Positions 48,181-64,000 of a DNA stretch of 64,000 nt are shown here, in pieces (the first letter of the stretch is position 1; every line of letters begins with the position of its first letter). The notes below the pieces were generated by a model. It was given only the letters and a program-made list of their open reading frames with translations. It did no database searches and was not told the DNA's origin. The position numbers and the translations under genes are program-made. The stretch is from a virus (Duplodnaviria > Caudoviricetes), in IMG/VR virus record IMGVR_UViG_3300033066_000386, positions 25,758-89,757 of that record; one strand, 5' to 3'.

Positions 48181-49014
48181 TTAAAACAATCCGCCCACCG
48201 CATGTTTTCTTTCCGCTTCCTCAAATCTTAGTCTACGCTCGTGTGCGGCTTGCGTGCGTTGCCTTGCTATCTTGCAATAATCCTCATGCACGTCAATGCC
48301 GATGCACAGCCTACCCGTATCCCTTGCCATTTTCGTGGTGGTCCCCGATCCCACAAAAGGGTCCAGCACCAAGTCCCCAACGTTGGACCACGATAGGATG
48401 TGGTCGCGTGCTAGGGCTTCTGGAAATGGTGCAGGGTGTTCCGTTAGTTGAGCCGGTTGCTCTCTCCAAACGTTGGTACGTTTCCCGTACTTTTTCCTAA
48501 CCACGATTCTTGATTCACTCGACTTATCAGCCCTCAAATTGCAGTTCACTTTGACCTGCCCGTTAGAAACTACGTTAAGGCGATCTTCAATTAGATTTAG
48601 AGACTTGGGCTTCCCGTTGGACATGACGAAAACGTATTCAAAGTTCTGCCCATAGCAATCTTGACTACCTAACGCTCCGCTGCCAGTCTTTTCCCAAATC
48701 ATCGTGTCGTGCAACCGCAGCCCGCATACGTCCTTGAAGTGCAGGGCTTGGCGGAAGCTGGTTCCCGTCTCGCTGCCGTCAATCGTGGCATCGGCCACCA
48801 CCCATACGATGACTCCACCCGGCTTAAGAATGCGAGTCAGTTGCTCGGCCACGCCCTCGAAGTTCCACGAATGCCCCCCATAAACACGAAGAGAATCGTA
48901 GGGCGGGCTAGTCACCACCAAGTCGATGCAGGCGTCTGGGAACGTCTTCATGACCTTGACGTTATCCCCGCACACGATTTGATTCAGCGGCAGCCTTGGA
49001 CGTATCGGAGGCAT
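48181..49014 (-). CDS. DNA methyltransferase (N4-C/N6-A, beta class)
   Basis: LVVTSPPY, HPAPFP, VLDPFVGSGTT. Confidence 0.92.
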   Translation of the reverse strand: MPPIRPRLPLNQIVCGDNVKVMKTFPDACIDLVVTSPPYDSLRVYGGHSWNFEGVAEQLTRILKPGGVIVWVVADATIDGSETGTSFRQALHFKDVCGLRLHDTMIWEKTGSGALGSQDCYGQNFEYVFVMSNGKPKSLNLIEDRLNVVSNGQVKVNCNLRADKSSESRIVVRKKYGKRTNVWREQPAQLTEHPAPFPEALARDHILSWSNVGDLVLDPFVGSGTTTKMARDTGRLCIGIDVHEDYCKIARQRTQAAHERRLRFEEAERKHAVGGLF

Positions 49015-49238
49015 TAGAGCACATCCCCCTCACACGGTTCGTATTCGTCGTACACCTCGCCCGTGCCACTGCATGTGCCGCACTTAACTCCCACACAGCC
49101 ATTGCAGCACTCTCGGCAACCAACCCCCTTACACACAAGACATTCTCCCTTGATTACGGCGTAGCCCTCACAGTCGGGGCATTCCTTCATTGGCCCGTTG
49201 GTGTAGGGGTTTTCGTCCCCAAATGCTTCTAAGCTCAT
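49014..49238 (-). CDS. DnaJ-type zinc-finger small protein
   Basis: Repeated CxxCxGxG. Confidence 0.6.
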   Translation of the reverse strand: MSLEAFGDENPYTNGPMKECPDCEGYAVIKGECLVCKGVGCRECCNGCVGVKCGTCSGTGEVYDEYEPCEGDVL

Positions 49239-49492
49239 CGTAGAATCTCCTCTAGTCTAGCCAGCTTGTTCTTGTCGCCGTGGTAACAGAATAGTTCGAG
49301 CAGCTTGTATTGCAGGCTGATGTATTTAGCAACGGCAGTGGACCTGCTCAACATTTCTAGCCCATCCACTACGGTCGTTCCCACATGCTCGACTCCCTTG
49401 ATCATTAGTATGGCTTCACGGATGACTTCGGCTTGATCTTCACCGTAGTCCTTGTCTAAAACAACAGTCAAGTTTCGCACCTTGTCGCTCAT
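49235..49492 (-). CDS. hypothetical protein
   Basis: Start refined to MSDKVRNL. Confidence 0.5.
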   Translation of the reverse strand: MSDKVRNLTVVLDKDYGEDQAEVIREAILMIKGVEHVGTTVVDGLEMLSRSTAVAKYISLQYKLLELFCYHGDKNKLARLEEILR

Positions 49493-49876
49493 GATGCCTT
49501 CTCCCTTACCGTTAGCGTTACTCCCGTGCCATCCCAGTCCTCTACGATCCATCCTATACCAAAGAATCAGCGGGATTGCGATGCCAAGAGATTGGCCCCC
49601 ACCTTGATGGCGGATAGCTCCACATCCGTAACCGTAGTCGCGCGAGAAGAAACGCACTTCACGACGATCTTGGCACGCTTCTTGTTTTCGTCTCTATCCA
49701 GCTCGATCAAGTGTCCTGCCACGGTGCGCGATAGTCCGGTGTAGATCGACATGATTCGAGCGTCCCTTAAGGTCTTCATGACTAGCGTAGATTTCATGTT
49801 GCTCCTCCATTTGAACCTGGCTCGTTTAAGTATAAGCCGGAAGGAGAGGAAAGTAAACGTTACGGTTCGGCCCAAT

Positions 49877-50338
49877 CTACTCGAACACATCTGCCGTGTT
49901 CTCAAGGATGCGTATCAGTTGCGGAGAAATGTGAAACCTCTCCGCGTTCTTCTCGATGCTCTTGCGAATGTTTCCGTCATTGTGTCGCAACGTTGCCGCC
50001 TTCCAGTCGCAAAACATTTCAATCAAATCAATGAGGTTCATGTCCTCAACGCCGTTCTTGAAATGCTCAGGGTGATGACGGTTGTGAGCGTAGTGATGCT
50101 TCAACGCTGGTCCAAGTGCCTTACGGAATTCGTCGTACTCCGCGCTGCCGTAAGTGCATCCTGCCAGCTTGGGCGTGTACTCCGTGAATAGGGCGACCTC
50201 CGGGTGATCCAGCTTGCTTTCGTCGTGGGCTTCCGCACGCCTCATCAATTCGTGGATGATCCGATTCACGAAATGCTGCACCTTCTGAATGTGCAACAAC
50301 GTTTCATAATTCGTGGCCCGCTCTTCTAGCGTCAACAT
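49877..50338 (-). CDS. DUF5662-like HD-related protein
   Basis: HIQKV...AEAHDESKL...HHYAHNRHHPEHF...DLIEMFCDW. Confidence 0.7.
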   Translation of the reverse strand: MLTLEERATNYETLLHIQKVQHFVNRIIHELMRRAEAHDESKLDHPEVALFTEYTPKLAGCTYGSAEYDEFRKALGPALKHHYAHNRHHPEHFKNGVEDMNLIDLIEMFCDWKAATLRHNDGNIRKSIEKNAERFHISPQLIRILENTADVFE

Positions 50339-50585
50339 TTCTTGCTCCTCAAAAAGAATTTCCCCGATTGCCCTTGCCACTATCCTATCGCACACACTAC
50401 AATTGTTATGTACGACCTTAAGATGGCCAGGGGGACGCACACACAACAAAAACACCATAGGTGTTTAGGATTCAGAAAAAATCAGAAACCACACATCCGC
50501 TAACCAGTCATCCACCGCCTCAATCCATTCCTTCATAACACCCTCCTAGCTGAGTTCTACTCGCGCGAGTAACGTAGTCCATACA

Positions 50586-50837
50586 TCAAAACGGGATATC
50601 CCCATCCACCTTGGGATTGGGTGGGGCTAGGCAATCCTCGAATCGGTAGACGTTGCCTGCATCATCGACCAATGTCTTTTCATTCTTGACCCAATCCTCT
50701 GCCAAGCGGATCAAGGTCGAGTCTCTGGGCTGGGCATCCCCGATTAACCCTAACTTGTGCAGCATGGATGCCAGTGCGGTCCGTAGCCGTTGCTCGGTTA
50801 GGAACTCTCGGAACTTCTCACGGTTGATCGGAGGCAT
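50586..50837 (-). CDS. hypothetical protein
   Basis: Start MPPINRE overlapping upstream stop; ends DIPF. Confidence 0.5.
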   Translation of the reverse strand: MPPINREKFREFLTEQRLRTALASMLHKLGLIGDAQPRDSTLIRLAEDWVKNEKTLVDDAGNVYRFEDCLAPPNPKVDGDIPF

Positions 50838-51187
50838 CACATGTCCTTTTCGGGCTGATGGTATTTGCCGTAGAGCAAGCACTTCCGAATCCATCTGCCC
50901 ACCCATTTGGGGGCATGGCTAGAGCAAGCCTTGGGGTTGGTCTCTTTTAGCCAGTCTCCCGTTCCGTAGAGGTCCATCGCCATCTTCTTTAGCACGGCTT
51001 CCGACAACCCTTTGACGACTGCCCACTTGCACGGCATGAGCGTGAGGGCGTATTTGTCCCCATCGTCGTCCTCGTTCTCGTGGATGAGGAACGGGCCGAA
51101 CATGATGCCTTCCACTTTTCTAGGAAAGGATATGCCATCCCTGTTCATCAGGATTTCCGCCTCACCCTTCCGCCAAAAGCTCGGCAT
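50837..51187 (-). CDS. hypothetical protein
   Basis: 116-aa ORF with SD aggag. Confidence 0.5.
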   Translation of the reverse strand: MPSFWRKGEAEILMNRDGISFPRKVEGIMFGPFLIHENEDDDGDKYALTLMPCKWAVVKGLSEAVLKKMAMDLYGTGDWLKETNPKACSSHAPKWVGRWIRKCLLYGKYHQPEKDM

Positions 51188-51195
51188 GGTTGCTC

Positions 51196-51498
51196 CTAGA
51201 ACGGTATCGGTTCTTCGACTTTTACTCGCGCGAGACTAACTAGACCATCGAATACGCGATGGCAGCCCTTGCACATGGGTCGGTAGCAATCGGGGTTCTT
51301 TAGCACGTCCCGATATCGCCTATCCAAGCCTCTGCTAGGACCCTTGAGGCCCGTGGGCTTGACGTGGGCGGCATGCTCGGAGGGTTGCTTGCAGAACACG
51401 CATTGCACCCCGATGAGCGTCAATGCCCTAGTCTTGAGCCGTTGCCGATACGTGCGGTTCCTGTCCTTGCCCTCAACCATAGCTGGCAACCTCCGCAT
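51196..51498 (-). CDS. HNH-like zinc-binding nuclease
   Basis: CVFC...HAAHV...MCKGCH; ends PIPF. Confidence 0.6.
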   Translation of the reverse strand: MRRLPAMVEGKDRNRTYRQRLKTRALTLIGVQCVFCKQPSEHAAHVKPTGLKGPSRGLDRRYRDVLKNPDCYRPMCKGCHRVFDGLVSLARVKVEEPIPF

Positions 51499-53236
51499 AG
51501 AGTCGTGATAGCCGTGGGGTCAATCGCCAAGCCATGCGATTGCCGTGGGCCTTGTCTTGCCATAGTTCCACCGCCCCTAGCTTACGCAGGAATTGGAGTA
51601 GCTTGCGTTCCTCTTGACTTGATTGGCTGGTCAGGATGGCCAAGGCACGTAGCTCCAAGCCTTCATCCCCGGCTTCGTGCAGGTACTTGACGATCTCGGT
51701 GGTACGCCCACTAGAGGTGTCCATCGCACACTTGACCACGATTTCTAGCACCCGCTTGTCTATCGTGGTTTGACCTCGTGCCGCAGCCAGGCATATGGCC
51801 AGCCTAGCATATTGCTCTACCAATCGCGCGGAGAATTCCCTTTCCGTCTTCTCCTGTTGCTTGAGCGATGGCCTGGCACGTAGGTATGCCGAGTACGTGG
51901 CTAGGTTGACGATCTGATTGGCTACGTATTCATCCGTTTCCACGTTGGACAAAAGGAACTCGGCATTGTCGTGGAGGTATTCGATATAGCCCCCGGTCAT
52001 TTGCATCATCTTAACCATGTCTGGGTTGAGTTGGGTGGTCATGGTTCCATTGGAGCGAGTCTTGACGTTCTTAAATGCGCGGTTTACCACGCTCATATTG
52101 ATTTCCCGTTCCAAGTCTTCGTCGATGCCCTCCATCATGATGCAATCCACGAACCTAGCCCCTAGCTCGTTCATGTCCGATCCGGCCATGCCCGAACCAG
52201 TGCCGCACATGATCCACGTCATGTTGATGCCTTCGGAGTCCATGCCCATGCCGTTGCGATAGTTGGTCCTCGATACGCGGTCGAATAGATCGCGTGCTTC
52301 CCCCATGATTTGAGGCCAATTCGGGGATTTCACCATGCTATCAGCATCCTTGGTAATGAGCGTCTTGCCCTTCAATTCGAGTACCACGCTCTTATTCGTG
52401 CCGCTATCGTCCCGATGACCTGAGTGAAATCCGCGCATGGTTGACAGGGCTTTGACGTGGGTCTTGTTGGTGGAGAGGGCTTCGCACAAAGTCGATTTGC
52501 CGCAGTTATGGTTAATCACGTTCCCGGCCCAATAGGATTCCAGCAACGGCACATGGAAATCGTAGTATTCCCGATCCTCCAAATACACGATGCTCTCGAT
52601 CTCGTCGAACTCCACCAGCTTCCTACCCTCAAGGTCATCCCCTGAGATGGTCGGAAGACGGTAAACGCCGGATTGCCGAAGCATGTCGGAAACGCTCACG
52701 TAAGAAGTCCTATCCCAAAAGCGATGACCCTCAGTAACGTCCATCGTCGTGCCGGATTTGAACGTCACCCGATACATCGGAGCCGGTGGATAGACGGCAG
52801 GTGGTAGGGCTTGAGCAACCCCCATCGTGCCGTCATCCCTCTTGCTCCACACGAAGAATCGTTTGCCCAATTCGTAGCGTTCCTTAACCGTCTTGGTAGT
52901 ACCATCCATAGGGTCATAGATGGGCGTATCCCCGTCCAAACATGAGGGAGGCCCGATCAGGCGAATCCACAGTTGGGAACCCACCGACCCCGTGCCTAGA
53001 ATGGCTGCTAGACACACGCTAAAGCCCCGGTCTAGCCCTTCGGTCCATTTCATGGCCTTCTTGCACACCTCGACCAGTTCTTCCCAACTCTCGCAAGGCA
53101 AGGTCTCCATCTCGACGGAGCCGCTGCCATTGGCATTGCCGTTGGGCTTGCGTCCACCAATCACCCAATCATCGGGAATGGGCTTGATGCGGTCCATCAA
53201 TCGTTCAAGTAGGCGTACTCGTATCGCAATCGTCAT
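51473..53236 (-). CDS. AAA+/MCM-like ATPase (putative replicative helicase) with mini-intein
   Basis: Spliced Walker A LIGPPSCGKST; LITKDADSM; LGARF; winged-helix-like C-terminus; downstream of primase. Confidence 0.7.
   Translation of the reverse strand: MTIAIRVRLLERLMDRIKPIPDDWVIGGRKPNGNANGSGSVEMETLPCESWEELVEVCKKAMKWTEGLDRGFSVCLAAILGTGSVGSQLWIRLIGPPSCLDGDTPIYDPMDGTTKTVKERYELGKRFFVWSKRDDGTMGVAQALPPAVYPPAPMYRVTFKSGTTMDVTEGHRFWDRTSYVSVSDMLRQSGVYRLPTISGDDLEGRKLVEFDEIESIVYLEDREYYDFHVPLLESYWAGNVINHNCGKSTLCEALSTNKTHVKALSTMRGFHSGHRDDSGTNKSVVLELKGKTLITKDADSMVKSPNWPQIMGEARDLFDRVSRTNYRNGMGMDSEGINMTWIMCGTGSGMAGSDMNELGARFVDCIMMEGIDEDLEREINMSVVNRAFKNVKTRSNGTMTTQLNPDMVKMMQMTGGYIEYLHDNAEFLLSNVETDEYVANQIVNLATYSAYLRARPSLKQQEKTEREFSARLVEQYARLAICLAAARGQTTIDKRVLEIVVKCAMDTSSGRTTEIVKYLHEAGDEGLELRALAILTSQSSQEERKLLQFLRKLGAVELWQDKAHGNRMAWRLTPRLSRLYAEVASYG
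52505..52942 (-). mobile_element. mini-intein (146 aa, no endonuclease) in Walker A
   Basis: GPPS|CLDGDTPI...TEGHRF...YYDFHV...NVINHN|CGKST. Confidence 0.9.
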
Positions 53237-53244
53237 GTCGAATC

Positions 53245-53994
53245 CTATTGGAAAAGCGAGTTCTCTGATCGTCCCTTATGTGCCTCTTCCGCCAGCCGCA
53301 ACCGTTCCATCCTATCCCATTCCTTTTGCATCCTCTCGGCAGCGATCTTGCAGTACTTCTCCTCAATCTCGATGCCGGTGAATTTCCTTCCCAGCCTGAT
53401 GCAAGCCACTCCGGTGGTCCCCGATCCGGTGAATGGGTCCAAGACAGCCCCTCGTACTGATATGCCAAGCAGCTCTAAAATTAGGCTAAGCGGTTTTGTA
53501 TGGGGGTGGCCTGTCTCAGATGTTGTTCCTGACTGACCCTCCAACGTTCTGAAGACGCAAGAGCGTTCTACGTTTCTGGTTGGCCACTCTCCTACCAAGA
53601 ATATCGGTTCGGCGTCCCTACGTAGACCAGTTACCGATCCAACCAATCCAGAATCAGGAGGCTTATGCCATACGCATACCTGCTTCACTCTCAACGGATA
53701 GGGTGCGTAGAAAGAGCCAAAAACTATACCTGGAAAATCCAACATTCCCAACACGCTATCTCTTAGTGAGGTATCTTCGTCCCCTAGAATCCCTGAGTGA
53801 GACTTGCTAGCCCGCTGATTGTTTGTGCCACGCTTCCAAGCTATCCCATACGGTGGGTCGGTGACAACGGCGTCCACCTTGCCTAACAGGGGCAGAATCT
53901 TGAGGCAGTCGCCGTGGTAGAGGACGTGATTACCGCAAGGGCTTTTCCAATACGGTTCTGGGAGTCTGGGTCTAATTGGAGGCATTGGTATCAT
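53245..53994 (-). CDS. DNA adenine methyltransferase (beta class)
   Basis: VVTDPPY, HPHTKP, VLDPFTGSGTT; second ATG at 53985 gives MPPIRP start. Confidence 0.9.
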   Translation of the reverse strand: MIPMPPIRPRLPEPYWKSPCGNHVLYHGDCLKILPLLGKVDAVVTDPPYGIAWKRGTNNQRASKSHSGILGDEDTSLRDSVLGMLDFPGIVFGSFYAPYPLRVKQVCVWHKPPDSGLVGSVTGLRRDAEPIFLVGEWPTRNVERSCVFRTLEGQSGTTSETGHPHTKPLSLILELLGISVRGAVLDPFTGSGTTGVACIRLGRKFTGIEIEEKYCKIAAERMQKEWDRMERLRLAEEAHKGRSENSLFQ

Positions 53995-54908
53995 CCCTCG
54001 TGATTATTCTTGCCGCTCAGCCAGTCGCGCACATCGTAGCCATCGGGGAGAGAGGGATCATAGCCCTTGCCTTCGCCCCAGTCCAGGTATCTCAATTCAC
54101 TAGGCTGTCCATCCGTGGATTTGGAAAAGAGCTGGGCTATTCGTTTCATGCCATCGTGTCCCGACATGGCCCCATTCTCGCGGGGATGATCACTATCGTA
54201 AAGCATCGTCATCTGTTTGCCCGTGAATAGCGTGGCCCAATGCTCGTGGAAGGTGGTGGCTCCCGGTGCGGCCAAGACGTTGATATCGGCATAGAGACTA
54301 ATGGCATCGTTGGCCGTCACTTCCAGCTTGCCGTCGTCGTTCTCCTTGCAGTTCTTTAGCACCTCGTAGATCGCCATGCCATCCCATACGCCCTCAGCTA
54401 AATAGACCTGGGATTTCTTGGGGGACCACAGATGCCTGCCAAGTAGCCCGTGACCCATGCCGGGGGCGGTCATGAGCGTTCTAGGGCGTCCCACGTAGCG
54501 GTAGAGCGTGACCATCTTGCCGTCCGCATTCCACCCCGGTATCACCCATTCCCCCGTAATGGCCGACCGACGCACCCCCCATTCGACTAGGGTGGAGGTG
54601 TAGAGCAAGCCCCGATTGTCCCGCAGCTTTTCCCAGTCCTTGTCGATCTCTTCGCTTGAATGCTCCCACAGCTTGCGGACAAAGGTAAGAGGGTTGCCCC
54701 CCTTGATGACCTTGCCGTTCTCCGATCCCTCATTGCACACGAAGCAACGCCATAGACCCAAGCTGTCTTCCTTGAGCGAGACGCTAAATTTGTTCTTACC
54801 GCAGAAGGGGCATTCCCCCATTGCCTGACCGTTACTGTTCTCTTGCAAGTCCATGCCGTGGAATTCGTAGACGGCCAATGGGTTGGCCTCCTTGGTCTTT
54901 ACCGCCAT
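53991..54908 (-). CDS. DNA primase (zinc finger + TOPRIM)
   Basis: CPFC...WRCFVC; VYLAEGVWDG; MLYDSD; DVRD. Confidence 0.85.
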   Translation of the reverse strand: MAVKTKEANPLAVYEFHGMDLQENSNGQAMGECPFCGKNKFSVSLKEDSLGLWRCFVCNEGSENGKVIKGGNPLTFVRKLWEHSSEEIDKDWEKLRDNRGLLYTSTLVEWGVRRSAITGEWVIPGWNADGKMVTLYRYVGRPRTLMTAPGMGHGLLGRHLWSPKKSQVYLAEGVWDGMAIYEVLKNCKENDDGKLEVTANDAISLYADINVLAAPGATTFHEHWATLFTGKQMTMLYDSDHPRENGAMSGHDGMKRIAQLFSKSTDGQPSELRYLDWGEGKGYDPSLPDGYDVRDWLSGKNNHEG

Positions 54909-54910
54909 GT

Positions 54911-55159
54911 CTAGCCCTCATATTTGAAGTTCATGTCTTCTATTTCAATCGCGCGTTGAATGCTGTCCATAGCCTCGACCATATCCTTACGCCAATCTTT
55001 ATCCGCTCGTCCCCCACGCAGCACCTTTTTTACGGCCTGGATTTGCCCCACGTTGGTGATGCCATACGAAGAAAGTAGATCGTAGATATCGCAGGTTAGC
55101 GTCTTGCCCTTGTCCGGCCCGTTGGAGGCTCGAATCGTCTTTAGATAGGGGTTGTCCAT
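54911..55159 (-). CDS. DUF3310-like phage protein
   Basis: DIYDLL...AVKKVLRGG...KDWRKDMVEAMDSIQRAIE. Confidence 0.5.
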   Translation of the reverse strand: MDNPYLKTIRASNGPDKGKTLTCDIYDLLSSYGITNVGQIQAVKKVLRGGRADKDWRKDMVEAMDSIQRAIEIEDMNFKYEG

Positions 55160-55189
55160 GCTTTTCCTTTCCGAAAATGACAATCGTGC

Positions 55190-55218
55190 TTGTCAAAACG
55201 CGCGATTCGACGTAGAAT
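55190..55218 (+). promoter_or_regulatory. sigma70-type promoter for winged-helix gene
   Basis: TTGTCA-N17-TAGAAT; spacer contains ACGCGCGAT. Confidence 0.55.
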
Positions 55219-55253
55219 CCTTTGAGTGTCCATTCATTCCAAGGAGCAATGCC

Positions 55254-55589
55254 ATGCCAAAGAAAGCCGATTATGTCCTCCGTAAGCCGCAAGTCCGTAT
55301 TCTGAAAGCACTTGCGAAATCCAAGTCCCGGCACGGACTAACGCGTGCCGAGATTGCGGAGGCTGCCAGCGTGTCCCCATCCATGACCGCCAACTTGGGT
55401 CCACTTGATCCCAAGCAAGTAAAAACCATCGAAGGCAAGTACGGCAAGCGGTCCCTGATGGAACTCAAGTACGTTGAATCGCGGGAGATTCCGGCCAACT
55501 TGGACGACGATACCGGAGAGGCCACCAGCTTTTATCTGCGCTATCTCATTACGGATGCCGGGAAGCAAGCACTTGAGACTCTGAAATAA
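55254..55589 (+). CDS. winged-helix transcription regulator (MarR/PadR-like)
   Basis: QVRILKAL...GLTRAEIAEAASVS...YVE...YLITDAGKQAL; SD aaggag. Confidence 0.65.
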   Translation: MPKKADYVLRKPQVRILKALAKSKSRHGLTRAEIAEAASVSPSMTANLGPLDPKQVKTIEGKYGKRSLMELKYVESREIPANLDDDTGEATSFYLRYLITDAGKQALETLK

Positions 55590-56235
55590 CCCCCTCATGT
55601 CGTCTCGTATCGCCCTTCGGGTAGGGCAGTACCTTGTATCTCAAGGCTGCCCTGGCTTTCTTGGTGAACCGTTTATTGCCAACGAACGTCACATATCGAT
55701 GCTTCCCCTTCTGCTTCTTTTTGATTAACTCGGTCCATTCCAATCCCATCGCTTCCGCCTTCGTGTCAATATGCCTACGGGTCATGGACACCACCGATCC
55801 ATCGTAAGGATGGAGCCAAATGGGTTCGGCGTTACCATGCCCGGTGTAAGTCCAATTCGTGGCCTGGTAGACGTAGCCCACATGACCCACATGCTCGTTG
55901 CAATCGGCGTAGCTGACCACGATCCAATCTTCCTTGCCCAACTCCCTCAAGGCTGCCCCGATCAGCTTGGAAGCGGCATTACGTTCTTTGGTGACGATGA
56001 CTAGCCTGGATAGCTCTAGCACTTGCTTGGAATACTCAGGGCCGCATACCCCCTTGCATAGCGTGTAGGATGCCGGGATGGAGAAGCACACGCACCCGAT
56101 TAACTGCTCGTTTCGATACAGCCCCCAGCAATACTTGATGGGTGGGGTTCTGCCGCTGTAATGATGCTTGAGAATCATTTCCTTACATGATTCCTTGCTC
56201 AGTTCCCCTACGGATGATGGACGGATTGGAGGCAT
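55549..56235 (-). CDS. Mom-like (GNAT-fold) DNA base modification enzyme
   Basis: HHYSGR...LIGCVCF...LELSRL...ASKLIG...VVSYAD...GHVGYVYQATNWTYTG. Confidence 0.78.
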   Translation of the reverse strand: MPPIRPSSVGELSKESCKEMILKHHYSGRTPPIKYCWGLYRNEQLIGCVCFSIPASYTLCKGVCGPEYSKQVLELSRLVIVTKERNAASKLIGAALRELGKEDWIVVSYADCNEHVGHVGYVYQATNWTYTGHGNAEPIWLHPYDGSVVSMTRRHIDTKAEAMGLEWTELIKKKQKGKHRYVTFVGNKRFTKKARAALRYKVLPYPKGDTRRHEGVISESQVLASRHP

Positions 56236-56237
56236 GT

Positions 56238-56921
56238 TTAGTCTTTGCCTCCCGACGGCAAAGGTTTTCGCCCACCTCTACATCGTTGGCAGAGCGGTAG
56301 ATAACTGTTTTGACCGCACTTCGTACACTTTTGCAGCTTTCTGCCGGTACGTTTCAAACCGCCCTTGCCGATCTTCTCCCTAACCTCTGGCGTCAATATC
56401 TTTCCTTCGGCATGGGCACGCTTCACGCCCTCGCTGAGTCTCCTACTTTTCTCTTCGCTTTGAATCTTCCTGACCCTTCGACAGTTCTCGGACAATAGGA
56501 GCCACCTACAATTCTCCGGTGAGTAACCCTTTTCCGGGTCTATGCGATCCACGGAGTATTCTTTGGAAGGTCGCTCGCCCATGTCCTCAAGGAAATTCTC
56601 AAACTTGTACCAGCGGTCGCAGATGGTGATGCCGTTGTAGCAAGCCTGTTTCTTTGCCGTATGGCATCGGGATATCATGTTGCTCCAGCACACATACGTT
56701 GACTTGTATTTGATGCCTAACCCTTGAGGGGTCTTAACCCTCTTTTCGACCGGCTTTCGCCAACATCCGCACGATTGCCTACCGCCAGTGGTTAAAACCC
56801 ACTCTCCTAATTTGACTAGCTCGCCGCATGAACAGCGGCATAACCAGCTGCATCCGCGCGGACCAACTCCGGCCATGCCTTCCACAACGAAATTACCGAA
56901 TTTCTTTCCTATCATCGACAT
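56238..56921 (-). CDS. HNH homing endonuclease
   Basis: FGNFVV...WLCRCSCG; WSNMISRC; SVDRIDPEKGYSPENCRW; NUMOD3-like tail. Confidence 0.85.
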   Translation of the reverse strand: MSMIGKKFGNFVVEGMAGVGPRGCSWLCRCSCGELVKLGEWVLTTGGRQSCGCWRKPVEKRVKTPQGLGIKYKSTYVCWSNMISRCHTAKKQACYNGITICDRWYKFENFLEDMGERPSKEYSVDRIDPEKGYSPENCRWLLLSENCRRVRKIQSEEKSRRLSEGVKRAHAEGKILTPEVREKIGKGGLKRTGRKLQKCTKCGQNSYLPLCQRCRGGRKPLPSGGKD

Positions 56922-57010
56922 TACCCCTTAAAGTAACCCTTGGAATTGTCTAAGCGGGCAGCCATGCAAGGACATGGTTTTCGGTGATCAGCCTAGCCCG
57001 CCGTAGATGT

Positions 57011-58453
57011 TTAGTATACGGATTTTCCCTCAGACCAATTGTCTTCATGCCGGGTAATCGACACCTTGAGGGGGACGCCTATGTCCTCCCCGGATTGCTC
57101 CATAATCGCCCTGATTTCTCGTGCCTTGTCGTCGTGGTCGCCTTCGGGGAAATCGAAGCCCAACTCGTCGTGAACGTACATGGTGACATAGTAGCCGCGC
57201 GGATCGTTCCTGGTCCACTCCCTAAGACGTTTATCGCAACGAATGAGAGCCTTGGACGCACACTGGCAAGCCGTGCTTTGAATGTAGTAATTGAGGGGAA
57301 CCGTGGGGCTAACCTTTCCCCACGAACCGCGCTGACAATAGATGGGGTATCCTCGTGTTGGATCGACCGTCTTATCCGGCATCGTCTCCACGTAGCCTAG
57401 CTTGCTTGCCATCGCTATTAGCTTGTCGTTGAGCTTCGTATGTTCCTTGAGCCTGTTCTGAACCATCGCTTGCGCACCGGGTCTTCGGGCTGCACGATCC
57501 GCCGTACCGCTAGCCAATAACGCCCCGTAGGATAGAGCAAATCCGAACCCCTTCACGTGCTTGTACCAGCTTGCTTCGTACCGTTTCTTGAATGCCCCCT
57601 TAATGTTGCACAGCTTCATCTTGGGTTTGCCGACATACTTTCCGTCCGACACGCATGGACAAGGCATCTTCTCCACCGATTTCAAAACGCTCTTGGTTCC
57701 CGCGCAGTCTGGGCACACCATCTCATTGAACAAGTCTTCGTAGATAATGCTCGCATTCATCAGGTGGTAGCTGCCAAAGCATGGCGGATCATCGGGCCTC
57801 TCAAACAATTCGATCATCACCCGTTCTTTGGAAGCGTATGCCGTTAGCCTTAGCTCCAGGTTTTCGTAGTCCAATGAATACCATACCCTGCCCTTCGCTG
57901 GCCCAAAACAGTAGCGCACATTGGCTTCCTCGATCTTACCTATCTGTTGGGAATTGGGGTTCGAGCTGCTAAATCGTAGTGTGCTAGTACCAGTGGGGTT
58001 TAACGAACTGTGAATGCGGTCATTGACAACAAACTTCTCATAGCTATCGATGTAGCCTATGGCCGTCTGACGTTTCCGGTACTGAGCTAGGTTCTTCACA
58101 AAATGGTAAGCAGGTGATGACCGTGGTAACGTCAATAGCCAATGCTCCATGACATACTTATCCATCGACGGATTTCCCTTCTCCGTCTTCTTTGGGGATT
58201 CCAATTTGAAGCCCTTGAATATCACGTCATTGAGGGCGTTGCTACGTCCATTTTTGGGCAACTCATCCAGCTCGGTTCCTTCCAGTCCATCCGCCAGGCT
58301 CAAGCAAATGTTACGGCTGCAATCGCTCTCCTCCTTGAGCCGTGTCTTGAGCTGCTTGGTGCGTTCCCGTGAGAACGTAACCCCACGTTCCTCCATGCCC
58401 TGAATGATGGGCAGGAGCTTCATGCGTTCGGCGTAGATGGCTTGTAGTGACAT
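57011..58453 (-). CDS. family A DNA polymerase, polymerase domain only
   Basis: TSTLRFSSSNPNSQQI, SLDYENLELR (motif A), KGFGFALSYG (motif B), VHDEL (motif C). Confidence 0.92.
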   Translation of the reverse strand: MSLQAIYAERMKLLPIIQGMEERGVTFSRERTKQLKTRLKEESDCSRNICLSLADGLEGTELDELPKNGRSNALNDVIFKGFKLESPKKTEKGNPSMDKYVMEHWLLTLPRSSPAYHFVKNLAQYRKRQTAIGYIDSYEKFVVNDRIHSSLNPTGTSTLRFSSSNPNSQQIGKIEEANVRYCFGPAKGRVWYSLDYENLELRLTAYASKERVMIELFERPDDPPCFGSYHLMNASIIYEDLFNEMVCPDCAGTKSVLKSVEKMPCPCVSDGKYVGKPKMKLCNIKGAFKKRYEASWYKHVKGFGFALSYGALLASGTADRAARRPGAQAMVQNRLKEHTKLNDKLIAMASKLGYVETMPDKTVDPTRGYPIYCQRGSWGKVSPTVPLNYYIQSTACQCASKALIRCDKRLREWTRNDPRGYYVTMYVHDELGFDFPEGDHDDKAREIRAIMEQSGEDIGVPLKVSITRHEDNWSEGKSVY

Positions 58454-58456
58454 GTT

Positions 58457-59182
58457 TCAATCGAATAATGAGTTGCGGTTGTGGTAGTTCTGCTCGGCGA
58501 TCCTCAGCCTCTCCATGCGTTCCCATTCCTCTTGCAAGCGTCTAGCCGATGCCTTACAAAACTGTTCTTTTAACTCGATGCCGGTGAATCTAAACCCTAA
58601 CCGAATGGCCGCTACGCCGGTGGTTCCTGACCCGCAGAATGGATCAAGTATCGTCTTGAACCCCTGAGGCAAATGTCCCAAACACCACAGCATCACGCCA
58701 ACCGGCTTTTGGGTAGGATGATCGCCACGAGGCTCTTTGTTTTCTCTCAACATTCCGTTCCAGCGATACTTGATCCTACGTACTGCCTTGTCAAGATTGG
58801 TCCAAGCTAGTTCACAATCAGCGAAATCACTTTCACCATTTTCCTTATCCCAGACTAGATAGCACTTGGTTGGACCTAAGTCATAGTAGTTTCCTCCGAA
58901 CACGATTGATTTACTTGCAGACGCTACCGCCTTTTCCATCGTGGCGTCGTCTATTGGTTTGTCATCCCAATCTTCGTCGCCATAATCTTTGGATATGGCC
59001 AGCTTTCCTCGCGACTTATTCTTCCCAGCAGCCTCACCAATGCCATAGGGAGGGTCCGTCACCACGGCGTCAACCTTTCCCAACAGCGGCAATATCTTCA
59101 AGCAATCCACGTGGTAGAGGACGTGGTGGCCGTCAGGGGATTTCCAATAGGGTTCCGGTAGTCTGGTTCGGATTGGGGGCAT
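58457..59182 (-). CDS. DNA adenine methyltransferase (beta class) inserted within polA
   Basis: VVTDPPY, HPTQKP, ILDPFCGSGTT. Confidence 0.92.
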   Translation of the reverse strand: MPPIRTRLPEPYWKSPDGHHVLYHVDCLKILPLLGKVDAVVTDPPYGIGEAAGKNKSRGKLAISKDYGDEDWDDKPIDDATMEKAVASASKSIVFGGNYYDLGPTKCYLVWDKENGESDFADCELAWTNLDKAVRRIKYRWNGMLRENKEPRGDHPTQKPVGVMLWCLGHLPQGFKTILDPFCGSGTTGVAAIRLGFRFTGIELKEQFCKASARRLQEEWERMERLRIAEQNYHNRNSLFD

Positions 59183-59880
59183 TACTTTTTCAACTCCTCT
59201 TCAATGTACATCCACAGCTTGAGCGTGTAGAGGCTATCCGTATTGGCATAGTCGCTTAGCACCGTCCACCACGGATGATCCGTAGGGTATTCCAGTTCTT
59301 TGGCAATCGCTCTTGGCAGCCAGTAGTCGGCACGCCATGCCTTGCCGGATTCAACGCCCTTGCCTTCCGCTTTGGATGAAGTCTTGATCGAAGGCATGTC
59401 TGGCAAGCCTTCCTTGGCGATACGCCAGTCCTTGAACTTGGATCGGGCCATGCGTCTTGCCTTTTGCACCGCATCCTGCAAGGCGTCCTCGTAGGGCGAA
59501 ATGTCCTCACCCAAGTAGTCCAGGCACATGGCGGTTAGATCGTGGGGCTTGCTTGAATTGAGCAGATGCCCGGCCATGAGCGTATCGTGGGTCTTGTGCC
59601 ACGGCCATTCGATGCCAAGACGGTGCAGGCCCTTGGCGTCGAAGCGTGAGTTATGCCCGATGAGATAGGTGCATCCGTCGATGAGGGCTTTGATTTCCAT
59701 TACGTCATCGGGAGGTATGGAAACCTTGCGGGTGAGCGGGTCTACGTCCCATTCCCAGAATAGCTGCGTGCCGTCTAATTGGCAGGTGGTGACTAGGAAA
59801 GGCATTGTGCCATGAAACCAATCGATGCCCTGGGTCTCACAGTCTAGGCTTAGGTATTTCTTGGGACGTAGTGGGGGCAT
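59182..59880 (-). CDS. family A polymerase 3'-5' exonuclease domain, stand-alone
   Basis: LDCETQG (ExoI), HNSRFD (ExoII), HDTL, YANTD (ExoIII). Confidence 0.88.
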   Translation of the reverse strand: MPPLRPKKYLSLDCETQGIDWFHGTMPFLVTTCQLDGTQLFWEWDVDPLTRKVSIPPDDVMEIKALIDGCTYLIGHNSRFDAKGLHRLGIEWPWHKTHDTLMAGHLLNSSKPHDLTAMCLDYLGEDISPYEDALQDAVQKARRMARSKFKDWRIAKEGLPDMPSIKTSSKAEGKGVESGKAWRADYWLPRAIAKELEYPTDHPWWTVLSDYANTDSLYTLKLWMYIEEELKK

Positions 59881-59890
59881 GCGTATTCCT

Positions 59891-60256
59891 TTACTTGGAT
59901 TGGGCTAAGTCTTCGATTCCGAACTTAACGCGGTAGCTGTCTAACACGTCCTTCGCTTCAAACGTGCTGTATGACTCCTCTGATTCCCGCATTTCCAATG
60001 TACCTACAGCCCAAGTCAAATATTGTGCGTCCGTCTCGCACAGGATCAGGTTGAGATTGCCGAACCGAACCGGCTCTTTACCATTCTCTGACATTCGGCG
60101 TAGGAAGTCTGCCGTTTCAGGGTCCACCCTAATCGCCAAGTCAACGTCCGATTCATCCGTTGGCTTGCCGTAGACGAACGATCCGGTTACGAATGCTCCA
60201 TTACCGATGTCCCCGTGGACCTTCGGTAGTGATTTCTTAGGATTCTTCTTTGGCAT
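59891..60256 (-). CDS. minimal nucleotidyltransferase (Pol beta-like/MNT)
   Basis: FVTGSFVYG...ESDVDLAI. Confidence 0.7.
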   Translation of the reverse strand: MPKKNPKKSLPKVHGDIGNGAFVTGSFVYGKPTDESDVDLAIRVDPETADFLRRMSENGKEPVRFGNLNLILCETDAQYLTWAVGTLEMRESEESYSTFEAKDVLDSYRVKFGIEDLAQSK

Positions 60257-60271
60257 TTCGTTCTCCTTGAA

Positions 60272-60305
60272 CTAAAGAAGATGGGGACGCTAGTAACGCC
60301 CCCAT
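60272..60305 (-). terminator. putative rho-independent terminator
   Basis: atgggg...ccccat stem then cttcttt on the minus strand, after SSB-like gene. Confidence 0.4.
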
Positions 60306-60334
60306 CGTGTCTAGTCGGTCGCGCGACTACAACT

Positions 60335-61435
60335 CTACTCTTCGACAGCCGACAACTCCGTGAGAGGAATTGGAATCGGCTTTTTGCCCTTGTCGAGAAT
60401 GGGCTTGCCGTTGCTAACCATCTTCACCGTGCAAGTGCCGTTCTTGGTGTTGATCGTTTGGACCTGAATTTGGTCCTTGAGCTTCTTCTTCGGGTTGGCC
60501 GGATCGGGGTGGGTCCACACGTAGATGTTGTTCACCTCGACCGTGAACTCTTCCGATGCCGTGCCCTCATCGCCAGCCCGTGCCTTCTCGATCATCGCCA
60601 CCACATCGTCCCAGTTGTCGGCAGCGGTAACGTCCTTATCGGGGATGCCTGCTGCCAAGGCGATTTCCGTCAAGCGGTCCACGGCGGTATCGTCACCATC
60701 GGCAGCCAGCTTTGCCAAGGCTTCCAAGTCTTCGGCCTCCGCTTCCGGCTTCGGTTCGGGGTCTTTCTTCTTGCCCTTGGTTGCCGTGGTGGTGGAGGGC
60801 TTTTCGGGTTCCGGCTCGTTCACCTTCACGTCGTCGGAGGCATCTTCCACGAAGTCCTCCAGTCCCTTCGTGCCGTACCAATTGTGATCCCATACGCCTG
60901 AGTTGGGGTAATCCTTGGTGGGTTCCTTGCTGCGGGTGGCGAATTTAAACTTGATGCACTGCTCGACTAACGTATCGAACAAAGCGTCGATGTCGGCATC
61001 GTCTTCCACGTCGTCCAAGCAGTTGGGTCCACCGAGCTTCTTGATCTCGTTGGCTGCCCGTGCCTCGTTCTCCTCTTGGGTGGCGATGACCGTGCCATCC
61101 TTCTTCTTCGTCTCGCAAAGCGGAATCATGATGTTGGTGAACAAGCCCTCGATGTTCATTTCCTTGGTGGAGTAGATTTCCACCTTGCCGTCCTTCCACA
61201 CCTTCTTCACGTCCGTGGCCGTCTTCGGGCTGATGACGCTACCCTCGAAGCGAAGGAACTCCTTGCCCTGATTTGGCCCCGACTTGTACTTGCCCCGCTT
61301 TATGGAGGCGAGCTTGGCCACTCCGTCGTGGATATCCCCCGGCAGGTCGGTTCGATCAGTGCCGAAGTCGATGGGGGCCTCCGCATGTTTCTTCATGTTC
61401 GATGCGAAGGACGATTTCTTTACCTGTGCTGCCAT
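60335..61435 (-). CDS. putative single-stranded DNA-binding/recombination protein with acidic linker
   Basis: OB-like N-terminus, Asp/Glu-rich, adjacent to helicase and Sak4-like ATPase; function inferred from context. Confidence 0.45.
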   Translation of the reverse strand: MAAQVKKSSFASNMKKHAEAPIDFGTDRTDLPGDIHDGVAKLASIKRGKYKSGPNQGKEFLRFEGSVISPKTATDVKKVWKDGKVEIYSTKEMNIEGLFTNIMIPLCETKKKDGTVIATQEENEARAANEIKKLGGPNCLDDVEDDADIDALFDTLVEQCIKFKFATRSKEPTKDYPNSGVWDHNWYGTKGLEDFVEDASDDVKVNEPEPEKPSTTTATKGKKKDPEPKPEAEAEDLEALAKLAADGDDTAVDRLTEIALAAGIPDKDVTAADNWDDVVAMIEKARAGDEGTASEEFTVEVNNIYVWTHPDPANPKKKLKDQIQVQTINTKNGTCTVKMVSNGKPILDKGKKPIPIPLTELSAVEE

Positions 61436-61481
61436 TACTGATGCTCCTCTGAAAATGAAACGGTTGGTTGACTCGGTTGAT

Positions 61482-62522
61482 TTAGTTTGCTAACACCCAT
61501 GTTAATTGATTCTTGGCCCGGCTAGCCGAAGTGTAGGTCCATCTTGCCATATCCCATTTGCTGCACTTCTGCTCGATGACGCATACGTGATCCGCCTCCG
61601 ACCCCTGGAATTTGTGGGTGGTGCAGCAATAGGCGTAGTCGAAGGGAATGAGGTTGCGGTCGTATTGCGGCTTGTTCTGGGAACCGAAAGCATCGGGGTT
61701 ATACCGGCAAGTGTATTTTATCCCATCCGACTCCATCGTTAGAAAAGGCGTATCTAGTCGCGCGAGTACACCTTGCATGCCGTTGAAAACTTTGGCGTCC
61801 TTGTCGTTCTGTAGGCACATGATGCGGTCGCCCACGCATGGATCGGGACCGTAGCCCAATTCCTCCCGATAGCTCTTGTTGATATTGACGCGAGTGGCGT
61901 TATAGGCACATAGCACCTGGTCTACGTGGGGCCAATCCACGGTGTCCATCTGATGCGTGCGGATGATCCTAACCTTGCCTTCCTTGCTCTTCCACGTCCG
62001 CGCATCGTTGCCCTTACGGAGATGGTCTGCAAACCGCGCGATTTCACCGGCATTGCGATGGATGGTTTCGAGTGTGATATCGGGCTGTAACATCAGGTTA
62101 AAGGAACCATCCCCAATCGGCTCTAGTTGGCCATGATCGCCGATGACGATGATGGGCAAGCCAAATCCTGTCAAGTCATCCCACAAAGGCTTGGGGACCA
62201 TGCTGCCCTCGTCGATGATGATGCCATCGCAATCCAAGTAGGGCTTGAGAAGGAATTCATCCAATTCCTTGTCGTAGTAATAGATCAAGCTATGGATAGT
62301 AGACGCCCCTGACACGCCCTTGGATCGTAGCACTTGAGCGGCCTTGCCCGTGTAGGAACAGGCATGCCATTGGTCCAACTCTTCCATCAGGGTTTGCACC
62401 AAGGTTGATTTTCCTGTTCCACCGATGCCCCCCATGATGCGTACTTGCTTTGGCGAGTGGATCAAGAAATCCACCGCCGCCATTTGCTCATCCGTCAACT
62501 CAATTCCGGTTTTGGTAATCAC
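61482..62522 (-). CDS. SF1B RecD/Dda-like helicase
   Basis: GIGGTGKST, SYTGKAA, TIHSLIY, IIIDEGSMV, GDHGQLEP, TTHKFQGSE, YTSASRA. Confidence 0.9.
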   Translation of the reverse strand: MITKTGIELTDEQMAAVDFLIHSPKQVRIMGGIGGTGKSTLVQTLMEELDQWHACSYTGKAAQVLRSKGVSGASTIHSLIYYYDKELDEFLLKPYLDCDGIIIDEGSMVPKPLWDDLTGFGLPIIVIGDHGQLEPIGDGSFNLMLQPDITLETIHRNAGEIARFADHLRKGNDARTWKSKEGKVRIIRTHQMDTVDWPHVDQVLCAYNATRVNINKSYREELGYGPDPCVGDRIMCLQNDKDAKVFNGMQGVLARLDTPFLTMESDGIKYTCRYNPDAFGSQNKPQYDRNLIPFDYAYCCTTHKFQGSEADHVCVIEQKCSKWDMARWTYTSASRAKNQLTWVLAN

Positions 62523-62523
62523 G

Positions 62524-63360
62524 TTACTTTCCCTCGATTACGGCACGTATCTTTTCGTAGCTGGGGTCGGCGATATCCTCTTCGGGTTCCTTGCTTCCTA
62601 GGGGCATGCGGAATCCCACCATGCTCTTTTCATGGGACACGATGCGAAGCATGTACTCGCTCTTGCCGGTGGACTTGGAAGTGGTCTTTTTCACCCCATT
62701 GATGACCTGTTCCTTGTACTCCATCTTCTCACGGATATACGTCTGGCATAGGTAGTCCACCGCTCCGTTGAGCCATAGTGCGGACGCCTTGCCTAGCGAT
62801 GGACCCATCATTCCGGGGATGCCTTGGATCATCTCCTCTTCGCTGGTCAGGTTGTTCTCGTGGGAGAGGACAATCATGTTCTTGCCGTGAGTGCTGGCCA
62901 GCTTGAAGAAGTCGTTGACGTTCTCCTTGAAGTTCCCCGCCACGGCCCCCCAGTCCTGTTTCTTGGCCATCGCCCACGTAAGCTGCACTGGCACGTTGAG
63001 CAAGCCTAGCTGCTCCTTCAAGAGGACCATGCGAAACCCGCTGGCCTCGTCCAAGATGACCGAATCGAACTTGTCTTCCACGGCGATGACCAACCCTTCC
63101 TTGAACTCATCCGATGAGGTGATTGGTAGCCAAATCGTATCCTTGCTCGTCGATACCGAACTAGTGCCATCCTCGAAGCCCAGAATCAGCTTCTTGCCAG
63201 GGAAGGTGCAAGCGATGCGAGTCTTGCCGCTCTTGGGTATGCCGTAGATGCAGACCCGCATGCCCTTTTTGATGTCTCCCACGGGGATCATCCGGTCACG
63301 TAATCCACCCTTGCTAACCTTGTCTCCGGTGGGGTTCTGTCTTTTAACGGTCGGCGGCAT
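62524..63360 (-). CDS. AAA_24/Sak4-like ATPase
   Basis: [28 protein letters not shown]. Confidence 0.8.
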
Positions 63361-63538
63361 TCTCTTCTCCTTTGTTGGGTTCTCGATCTAGTAATTCTCG
63401 GCGTAGGATGGGGATATCTTCGGGGGCATCGATGCCGATCCTGATGACGTTGCGGCTAATCGATATGACCTTGACCACGATATTGCCCTCCTTGCCGATG
63501 ACCACTTCCTCATTTACCTTCCGTGACACGATTAGCAT
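63344..63538 (-). CDS. csrA: carbon storage regulator CsrA/RsmA homolog
   Basis: [15 protein letters not shown]...VRIGIDAP..IPILRRE pattern. Confidence 0.88.
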
Positions 63539-64000
63539 GATTCAGCCTCTTGTAGTTCTGGGAATAGCGATTCTACCCTACGCAGCCCCACCGTGGAACC
63601 ATTGGCCAGGTATTCATCCAACTCGGAGAAACCGTGTTCCATGAGGGGGTTGTAGCATCCTAGCGGGGCATTCCAGTTCATCGGTGGGGTGGGGCATTCC
63701 TTTTTCTTCACCACCGTATCGTACCAGCAGCATAGATGCTCCAAGAACGGGTTGAGGAACGTGTGTTGGAAGAATGCCACGTCCGAGCTAGTCAAGTCGG
63801 ATTGGAAGCGAACGAACCACTCGGAGGGATCGGCCTGGAAGTAGTCGGTGCGTAGGCGGTTGAGCCATGCCTCCGTGGTCTCTCCAGGCTTGTATCCGCT
63901 CTTGAGTTGCCTTGCCTCATGTTGCTTGATGGGGCAGTCCCGTCTCACGATGTTGTAGCACACTCCGCGCACAACGAATCGAGACTTGTCCATTTTGGTT
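63532..64000 (-). CDS. C-terminal part of a probable PD-(D/E)xK exonuclease (partial)
   Basis: YNIVRR...C...NPLM pattern and position upstream of csrA/Sak4; frame continues past right edge. Confidence 0.4.

Follow-up and report, generated by a model that had tools for sequence, protein, structure and literature searches.

A Met-Pro N-terminal label with genome-specific flavours on DNA-metabolism proteins of an uncultured phage clade

Shared terminal peptides are the means by which replisomes recruit their clients. Sliding-clamp motifs, such as the bacterial QL[S/D]LF type and the C-terminal tails of T4 replication proteins, dock many DNA enzymes on one hub, and the C-terminal tip of the single-stranded DNA-binding protein (SSB), D-D-D-I-P-F, is read by many replication and repair proteins. 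During translation, elongation factor P (EF-P) speeds Pro-Pro bonds as well as the first peptide bond, and a proline at position 3 blocks removal of the initial methionine. The X-Pro-Lys methylation motif of the eukaryotic NTMT/NRMT enzymes consists of a free N-terminus whose second residue is proline and whose third is basic. The internal proteins of phage T4 carry a capsid targeting sequence, an address label of about 10 residues at the extreme N-terminus of unrelated proteins (PMC3012670, PMC9958956). Here we describe an N-terminal peptide, M-P-P-[I/L]-R-[P/T], in an uncultured virus (Duplodnaviria; Caudoviricetes; IMG/VR record IMGVR_UViG_3300033066_000386, 89,757 bases, an 89.7-kb genome with ~140 genes), analysed mainly in a stretch of 64,000 nucleotides (bases 25758-89757 of the record, hereafter the window). 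Like the T4 capsid targeting sequence, this tag is an N-terminal peptide common to unrelated proteins of one phage. Unlike it, the tag is carried by replication, recombination and modification enzymes rather than by head-internal proteins, is followed by no evident prohead-protease cleavage motif, is unrelated in sequence, and differs in flavour among related phages.

Eight genes of the phage begin with Met-Pro-Pro, and five of these begin with M-P-P-[I/L]-R-[P/T], namely those of three N6_N4 methyltransferases (MT1, MT2 and MT3), a Mom-family protein and the 3'-5' exonuclease of the family-A DNA polymerase, PolA (Table 1; domain names of window proteins are Pfam assignments). The original prediction had named seven such starts in the window, and all seven are present on the minus strand, where their Shine-Dalgarno (SD) sequences and upstream stops favour them. 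For MT1, MT3, Mom, the exonuclease and Sak4, the ATG is the first possible start past the upstream stop, with an SD-like sequence at normal spacing in each case. For MT2 an in-frame ATG also exists at 53994, but the SD sequence GAGGGA abuts it and is well spaced, at 8 nt, ahead of 53985, which makes the latter the preferred start. The start at 50837, that of an 83-aa protein, is coupled, its ATG overlapping the preceding stop in TGATG, with AAAGGA 6 nt before it, and the ATG of MT3 overlaps the stop of the exonuclease gene by one base.

A count of Met-Pro-Pro starts against expectation, which the original prediction had proposed, confirmed that the shared start is real and far beyond chance. 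The DNA-metabolism arc extends from ~73.9 kb to 8.3 kb by way of the contig ends, and its 38 genes include all eight, against none of the 103 genes elsewhere (Fisher p=1.5e-5); Met-Pro starts overall are found in 13 of the 38 arc genes and in 4 of the 103 others (p=7e-6). The expectation for M-P-P-[IL]-R-[PT] is ~2e-6 per gene, a rough figure from assumed residue frequencies, compared with five observed among ~140 genes. ATG-CCN-CCN occurs 44 times on both strands, and just eight of these occurrences head long reading frames. When the whole proteome was searched for the motif inside proteins, none was detected; it occurs at position 2 only.

The tag is independent of the protein fold behind it, as had been claimed, since its carriers include methyltransferases, Mom, the PolA exonuclease and Sak4. 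MT1 and MT2 share 28% identity overall and nine of nine residues at the start; MT2 and MT3 are close paralogues (47% identity) and therefore count as one origin. Among 120 Mom homologues, only one 99%-identical twin has the same N-terminus, and the PolA proteins of the relatives L001 and L003 lack the eight-residue extension and begin with the first exonuclease strand itself. The Pfam domains of Mom and the exonuclease start within a few residues of the tag, and in the AlphaFold model of Mom (mean pLDDT 88.6) residues 1-7 form a coil ahead of the first strand. A tag specific to modification enzymes, as first proposed, does not fit its distribution, which extends to the recombination and repair proteins Sak4, the MutS_I protein and the PDDEXK nuclease of a 98%-identical relative, L092, where the whole nuclease (392 aa) starts Met-Pro-Ser-Leu. 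Only the C-terminal part of this nuclease is encoded in the window.

Selection acts on the peptide rather than on the RNA. In an alignment of the five start regions, nucleotide conservation is absent 5' of the ATG and past codon 6; within the tag the invariant columns are at codon positions 1 and 2 only, and all variable columns are wobble positions. Pairwise comparison of the five tags gave 26 synonymous against 8 non-synonymous codon differences, and the variety of codons reported earlier (ATA, ATT and ATC for Ile; CGT, CGA and AGA for Arg) was borne out. RNA folds at the five starts were not better than those of shuffled sequences (z -0.5 to +1.5), and no Rfam family matched the start regions. 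Because conservation runs from the ATG to codon 6, is confined to codon positions 1 and 2 and is accompanied by no shared RNA structure, the selected unit is the peptide, in agreement with the original prediction.

A DNA search matched no cultured relative, and at the protein level PolA reached no more than 26-27% identity in its best match. We recovered 12 uncultured phage contigs with the same gene order and compared their replication modules (individual genomes are given L numbers). Proline is the commonest second residue in these modules, in 98 of the 479 called genes (20%), compared with 2 of 71 in a control Bacillus phage, and its codon usage at position 2 equals that of proline elsewhere in the proteins. 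The Met-Pro proteins have a loose consensus, M-P-[K/T/P/Q]-[I/V]-[K/R/P]-[K/R]-[R/Q/K]-L, with I, V or L at position 4 in 49% of them (25% otherwise) and a mean charge of +1.27 over residues 2-10 (+0.33 otherwise). M-P-P-[I/L]-R-[P/T] is this phage's flavour of a clade-wide label, M-P-x-[I/V/L]-[K/R/P]-[K/R], whose commonest flavour is Met-Pro-Lys. Sak4 has a Met-Pro start in 10 of 10 genomes and in all 10 full-length database homologues. The label is also found in Mom, methyltransferases (8/10), RuvC-like proteins (5/7), primase-helicases (8/15), PolA (5/14) and PDDEXK nucleases (4/10), and was not found in four other clusters, which are unannotated and have no recognised DNA-enzyme member. 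In complete relatives, Met-Pro starts are concentrated in the replication module.

The residues that follow Met-Pro differ from genome to genome and are shared between unrelated proteins of one genome. The flavours are M-P-x-P-[K/R] in L003, M-P-x-I-P in L014, M-P-K-L in L011, M-P-K-V-G in L004 and M-P-P-I in this phage; in the closer relative L093, the methyltransferase and the intact PolA both start M-P-P-I, and the RuvC-like and UDG proteins have another five-residue start in common. Among non-homologous Met-Pro pairs, at least four of the six residues at positions 3-8 match in 1.8% within genomes and in 0.13% between genomes (p=5e-7), an excess of ~14-fold. Proteins without a Met-Pro start show no within-genome excess at positions 3-8, and the excess of the Met-Pro proteins is limited to positions 3-9, being gone at 10-16 and 31-37. 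Amino-acid composition was rejected as the cause of the similarity, since it would restrict the excess neither to positions 3-9 nor to Met-Pro proteins. Of 55 identical residues in matching pairs, 34 are written with different codons, against 37.4 expected from independent draws. Recent gene conversion was rejected on this ground, and the identity of the tags is thus old and maintained rather than recently copied. These comparisons show a label under peptide-level constraint, restricted to the N-terminus and to the DNA module, with genome-specific flavours.

The label is found only at the N-terminus and is maintained by purifying selection; it singles out one functional class, and its copies in a genome drift together. 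On these grounds we lean, with somewhat less than even confidence, towards an address or docking signal that is read via the free N-terminus by one co-evolving common partner. The label is a proline-containing, mildly basic extension of 6-9 residues directly ahead of the first structural element of mostly unrelated DNA-handling enzymes, with residues 3-8 changing in concert within each genome. The partner would most likely be a protein of the phage or its host that brings together, processes or regulates the tagged enzymes on replicating phage DNA. The existence of this reader, its protein nature and its role in recruitment to replicating phage DNA are all inferred. The fuller form of the proposal is possible, if on the unlikely side. 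It holds that the label is a genome-specific N-terminal address code, by which the reader, on recognising free Met-Pro N-termini, assembles or controls a factory that replicates, repairs and modifies DNA; label and reader would co-evolve, and acquired genes, such as the extra methyltransferases, would have to gain the resident label to work. A Met-Pro label on a third of the DNA-metabolism genes, with concerted drift and peptide-level upkeep, is not described in the literature searched. A reader, if there is one, would add a new hub to phage DNA metabolism and would account for the way in which acquired modification genes join the replication programme; the label would then be a portable tag with which proteins could be targeted inside infected cells.

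Several observations weigh against an address label. No reader was found, with neither a phage clamp gene nor a known peptide-binding family among the annotated module proteins, and 12 relatives are too few for finding one by covariation. Several DNA enzymes of the arc lack the tag, namely the polymerase domain, the primase, both helicases and the SSB-like protein. Genes with and without it are mixed within a single co-oriented block, possibly one temporal expression class, so that a tag confined to DNA enzymes cannot be told apart from one confined to the module. Some tags, such as that of Mom, are near zero net charge. Gene starts in the relatives come from a simple SD-based caller, with which public gene calls agree where they exist, and the Met-Pro start counts cover phage genomes only. 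Finally, a co-translational or N-terminal processing role would account just as well for the strict N-terminal placement and the invariant Met-Pro.

Such a processing role, in which the Met-Pro start sets the expression or stability of a DNA-metabolism regulon, has a modest probability in our judgement and survives best among the alternatives. Its possible routes are a slow first peptide bond, EF-P dependence, control of early elongation or drop-off, a block of Met removal by Pro-Pro, and protection from aminopeptidases. It would suit the tightly coupled, co-oriented blocks in which the tagged genes lie, and the orthologues of the SSB-like protein, which swap Met-Pro for Met-Ala, also have a small residue that allows Met removal. 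Like EF-P-dependent polyproline motifs, the starts of eight genes in this phage contain adjacent prolines, here directly behind the initial methionine. However, consecutive prolines are found in the tags of this phage and L093 and not in their equivalents in L003, L014 and L011; the clade label does not depend on them, and residues 4-8 are constrained too. The Pro-Pro pausing suggested in the original prediction is therefore ruled out as a general mechanism, because relatives use M-P-x-P or M-P-x-I-P. Genome-specific residues 3-8, shared by unrelated proteins, would also hardly be expected from a conserved ribosome; the tagged genes have unrelated SD sequences and upstream regions, and structural and sugar-pathway genes of the same phage lack the tag. 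Should the label nevertheless be a translation or processing signal, a whole regulon would be defined by its first six codons, which would be unusual.

We consider it distinctly less probable that the label is a non-specific nucleic-acid-binding arm, a short, basic, proline-kinked tail that tethers enzymes to DNA and aids sliding, comparable with the N-terminal arms of DNA-binding domains. Every tagged protein of known function handles DNA, the charge of residues 2-10 is raised as given above, and Pro-Lys/Arg-rich starts occur in many relatives. DNA as the reader, however, explains neither the genome-specific flavours nor the requirement for the N-terminus; the tags of the window itself are weakly charged (0 to +3), and a conserved hydrophobic position 4 is unexpected for an electrostatic tail.

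A historical relic, with no function today and left by recombination or paralogy that copied 5' ends from gene to gene within a genome, is disfavoured and has only a small probability. Three of the five carriers are methyltransferases, two of them the paralogues MT2 and MT3, and MT3 is inserted inside the PolA gene, as such copying might leave them; yet the peptide has persisted although its synonymous sites are saturated, upstream sequences are unrelated, and every relative examined behaves in the same way. Least probable of all, and likewise disfavoured, is an RNA operator at the start codon, either an SD-sequestering hairpin or a site bound by a translation repressor such as the phage CsrA encoded nearby, for although CCUCC (codons 2-3) can pair with the upstream SD in three of the five mRNAs and a CsrA homologue is encoded beside the module, MT3 and the exonuclease have no hairpin, the tag lacks the GGA motif recognised by CsrA, and the folds, the Rfam search and the wobble-only variation described above all speak against it. 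The gene just upstream of Sak4 has a CsrA Pfam match in L092 and L093 as well, and in L008 and L011 a short gene with a similar N-terminal sequence stands there.

Compared with clamp-binding motifs, the tag is also a short linear motif at a chain end. It differs from QL[S/D]LF or QLxLxL in that M-P-P-I-R-P-R-L-P is N-terminal, has its hydrophobic residues at positions 4 and 8, has no Gln and has the wrong spacing. The three methyltransferases end in Leu-Phe tails (Table 1) that are closer to the beta-clamp-binding pentapeptide than the N-terminal tag is. Judged from this better fit, the clamp role is probably already taken by the methyltransferase C-terminal tails, which thereby compete with the replisome docking that the original prediction had put forward for the N-terminal tag. 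The methyltransferase orthologue of L093 ends Ser-Thr-Leu-Phe-Asp-Glu, and the PDDEXK nucleases of the clade have a conserved Leu-Phe-x-Glu-Leu near the C-terminus. The SSB tip is acidic and C-terminal and belongs to one hub, whereas the tag is basic to neutral and N-terminal and is carried by many clients. Ends resembling the SSB tip are found in the 83-aa protein and a small HNH-like protein of the window, in the SSB-like protein of L007 and in a 72-aa protein of L011. The commonest clade flavour, Met-Pro-Lys, recalls the NTMT/NRMT motif; position 3 in this phage is Pro, not Lys, and we know of no enzyme of this type, and saw none, in this phage. In L001, Mom, a methyltransferase and a 61-aa protein share a C-terminal Pro-Lys-Lys/Arg-Ile-Leu tail besides the N-terminal label.

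Table 1. Tagged genes and other features of the phage. Coordinates are window positions unless another sequence is named.
Feature	Coordinates	Strand	Details
MT1 tag, M-P-P-I-R-P-R-L-P	48988..49014	-	Gene 48181-49014, N6_N4 methyltransferase; precedes the conserved methyltransferase N-terminal region
MT2 tag, nine residues identical to MT1	53959..53985	-	Gene 53245-53985, N6_N4 methyltransferase
MT3 tag, M-P-P-I-R-T-R-L-P	59156..59182	-	Gene 58457-59182, N6_N4 methyltransferase
Mom-family (PF25680) tag, M-P-P-I-R-P	56218..56235	-	Gene 55549-56235
PolA 3'-5' exonuclease tag, M-P-P-L-R-P-K-K	59857..59880	-	Gene 59182-59880; ~8-residue extension
AAA_24/Sak4 tag, M-P-P-T-V-K-R	63340..63360	-	Gene 62524-63360; weaker flavour
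83-aa protein tag, M-P-P-I-N-R-E	50817..50837	-	Gene 50586-50837; weaker flavour
Nucleotidyltransferase-fold gene	59891..60256	-	Start M-P-K-K-N-P-K-K; clade-level Met-Pro basic flavour
MutS_I-domain protein gene	genome 6715-8259		Eighth Met-Pro-Pro gene; 514 aa; outside the window
PDDEXK nuclease, C-terminal part	63532-63993	-	153-aa frame, cut by contig end
CsrA homologue	63344-63538	-	PF02599, E=1.6e-17; overlaps Sak4 gene start
SSB-like protein	60335-61435	-	366 aa, conserved
Gene adjoining Mom	55254-55589	+	111 aa
Family-A DNA polymerase	57011-59880	-	Split by MT3 (58457-59182) into exonuclease (59182-59880) and polymerase (57011-58453)
Primase-helicase homologue	51473-53236	-	587 aa; putative intein (see text)
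MT1 C-terminal tail	48181-48200	-	Gly-Gly-Leu-Phe
MT2 C-terminal tail	53245-53265	-	Asn-Ser-Leu-Phe plus one residue
MT3 C-terminal tail	58457-58475	-	Asn-Ser-Leu-Phe plus one residue
83-aa protein, C-terminal end	50586-50605	-	Asp-Ile-Pro-Phe
HNH-like protein (~100 aa), C-terminal end	51196-51215	-	Pro-Ile-Pro-Phe
Mom, methyltransferase and 61-aa protein of L001	L001 73-258, 10001-10687, 11376-12389		Shared C-terminal tail
tRNA-Ile	L017 6637-6709	-	Anticodon TAT; outside the window

The SSB-like protein occupies the SSB position of the module and has no Pfam or PHROG match. In its model, a beta-rich N-terminal domain is followed by an acidic disordered linker, then by a helical piece and finally by a Tudor/SH3-like barrel at the C-terminus; for the barrel, Foldseek gave TM-scores to 0.8 on targets of ~55 residues with E-values of only 0.01-0.1. 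The protein was considered as a candidate reader of the label. Complex prediction for its barrel with Mom returned a score of 0.00 against a mark of 0.32, and such a score carries no weight either way. The 111-aa protein adjoining Mom is a possible regulator. Its gene, among the few plus-strand genes of the module, has a homologue in 8 of the 12 genomes, and the gene adjoining Mom is likewise on the opposite strand in L001, L003, L004 and L007.

A degenerate-DNA search for the exact nine-residue tag gave no match in viral contigs. In metagenomes the same search gave 57 matches, nearly all of them short out-of-frame open reading frames in GC-rich DNA; none of the 57 was a methyltransferase start, and no closer relative of the same flavour was found. 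Two contigs binned into metagenome-assembled genomes have the host labels Dehalococcoidia and Saccharibacteria, a binning that we consider unreliable, and a contig classed as a provirus showed no host flank on examination.

Among the neighbouring genes, the polymerase gene split by MT3 has an intact counterpart of 679 residues in L093, where the methyltransferase lies upstream of PolA. The primase-helicase homologue has a weak, sub-threshold Intein_splicing match over residues 208-244 (E=0.0038, 17.5 bits against a cut-off of 35.8), which marks a putative intein only. The palindrome TCGCGCGA is present in 39 copies in the 89.7-kb genome, many of them in the window, against 1.6 expected, and four relatives contain no comparable palindrome. 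The tRNA-Ile listed in Table 1 is the sole tRNA found in the genome.

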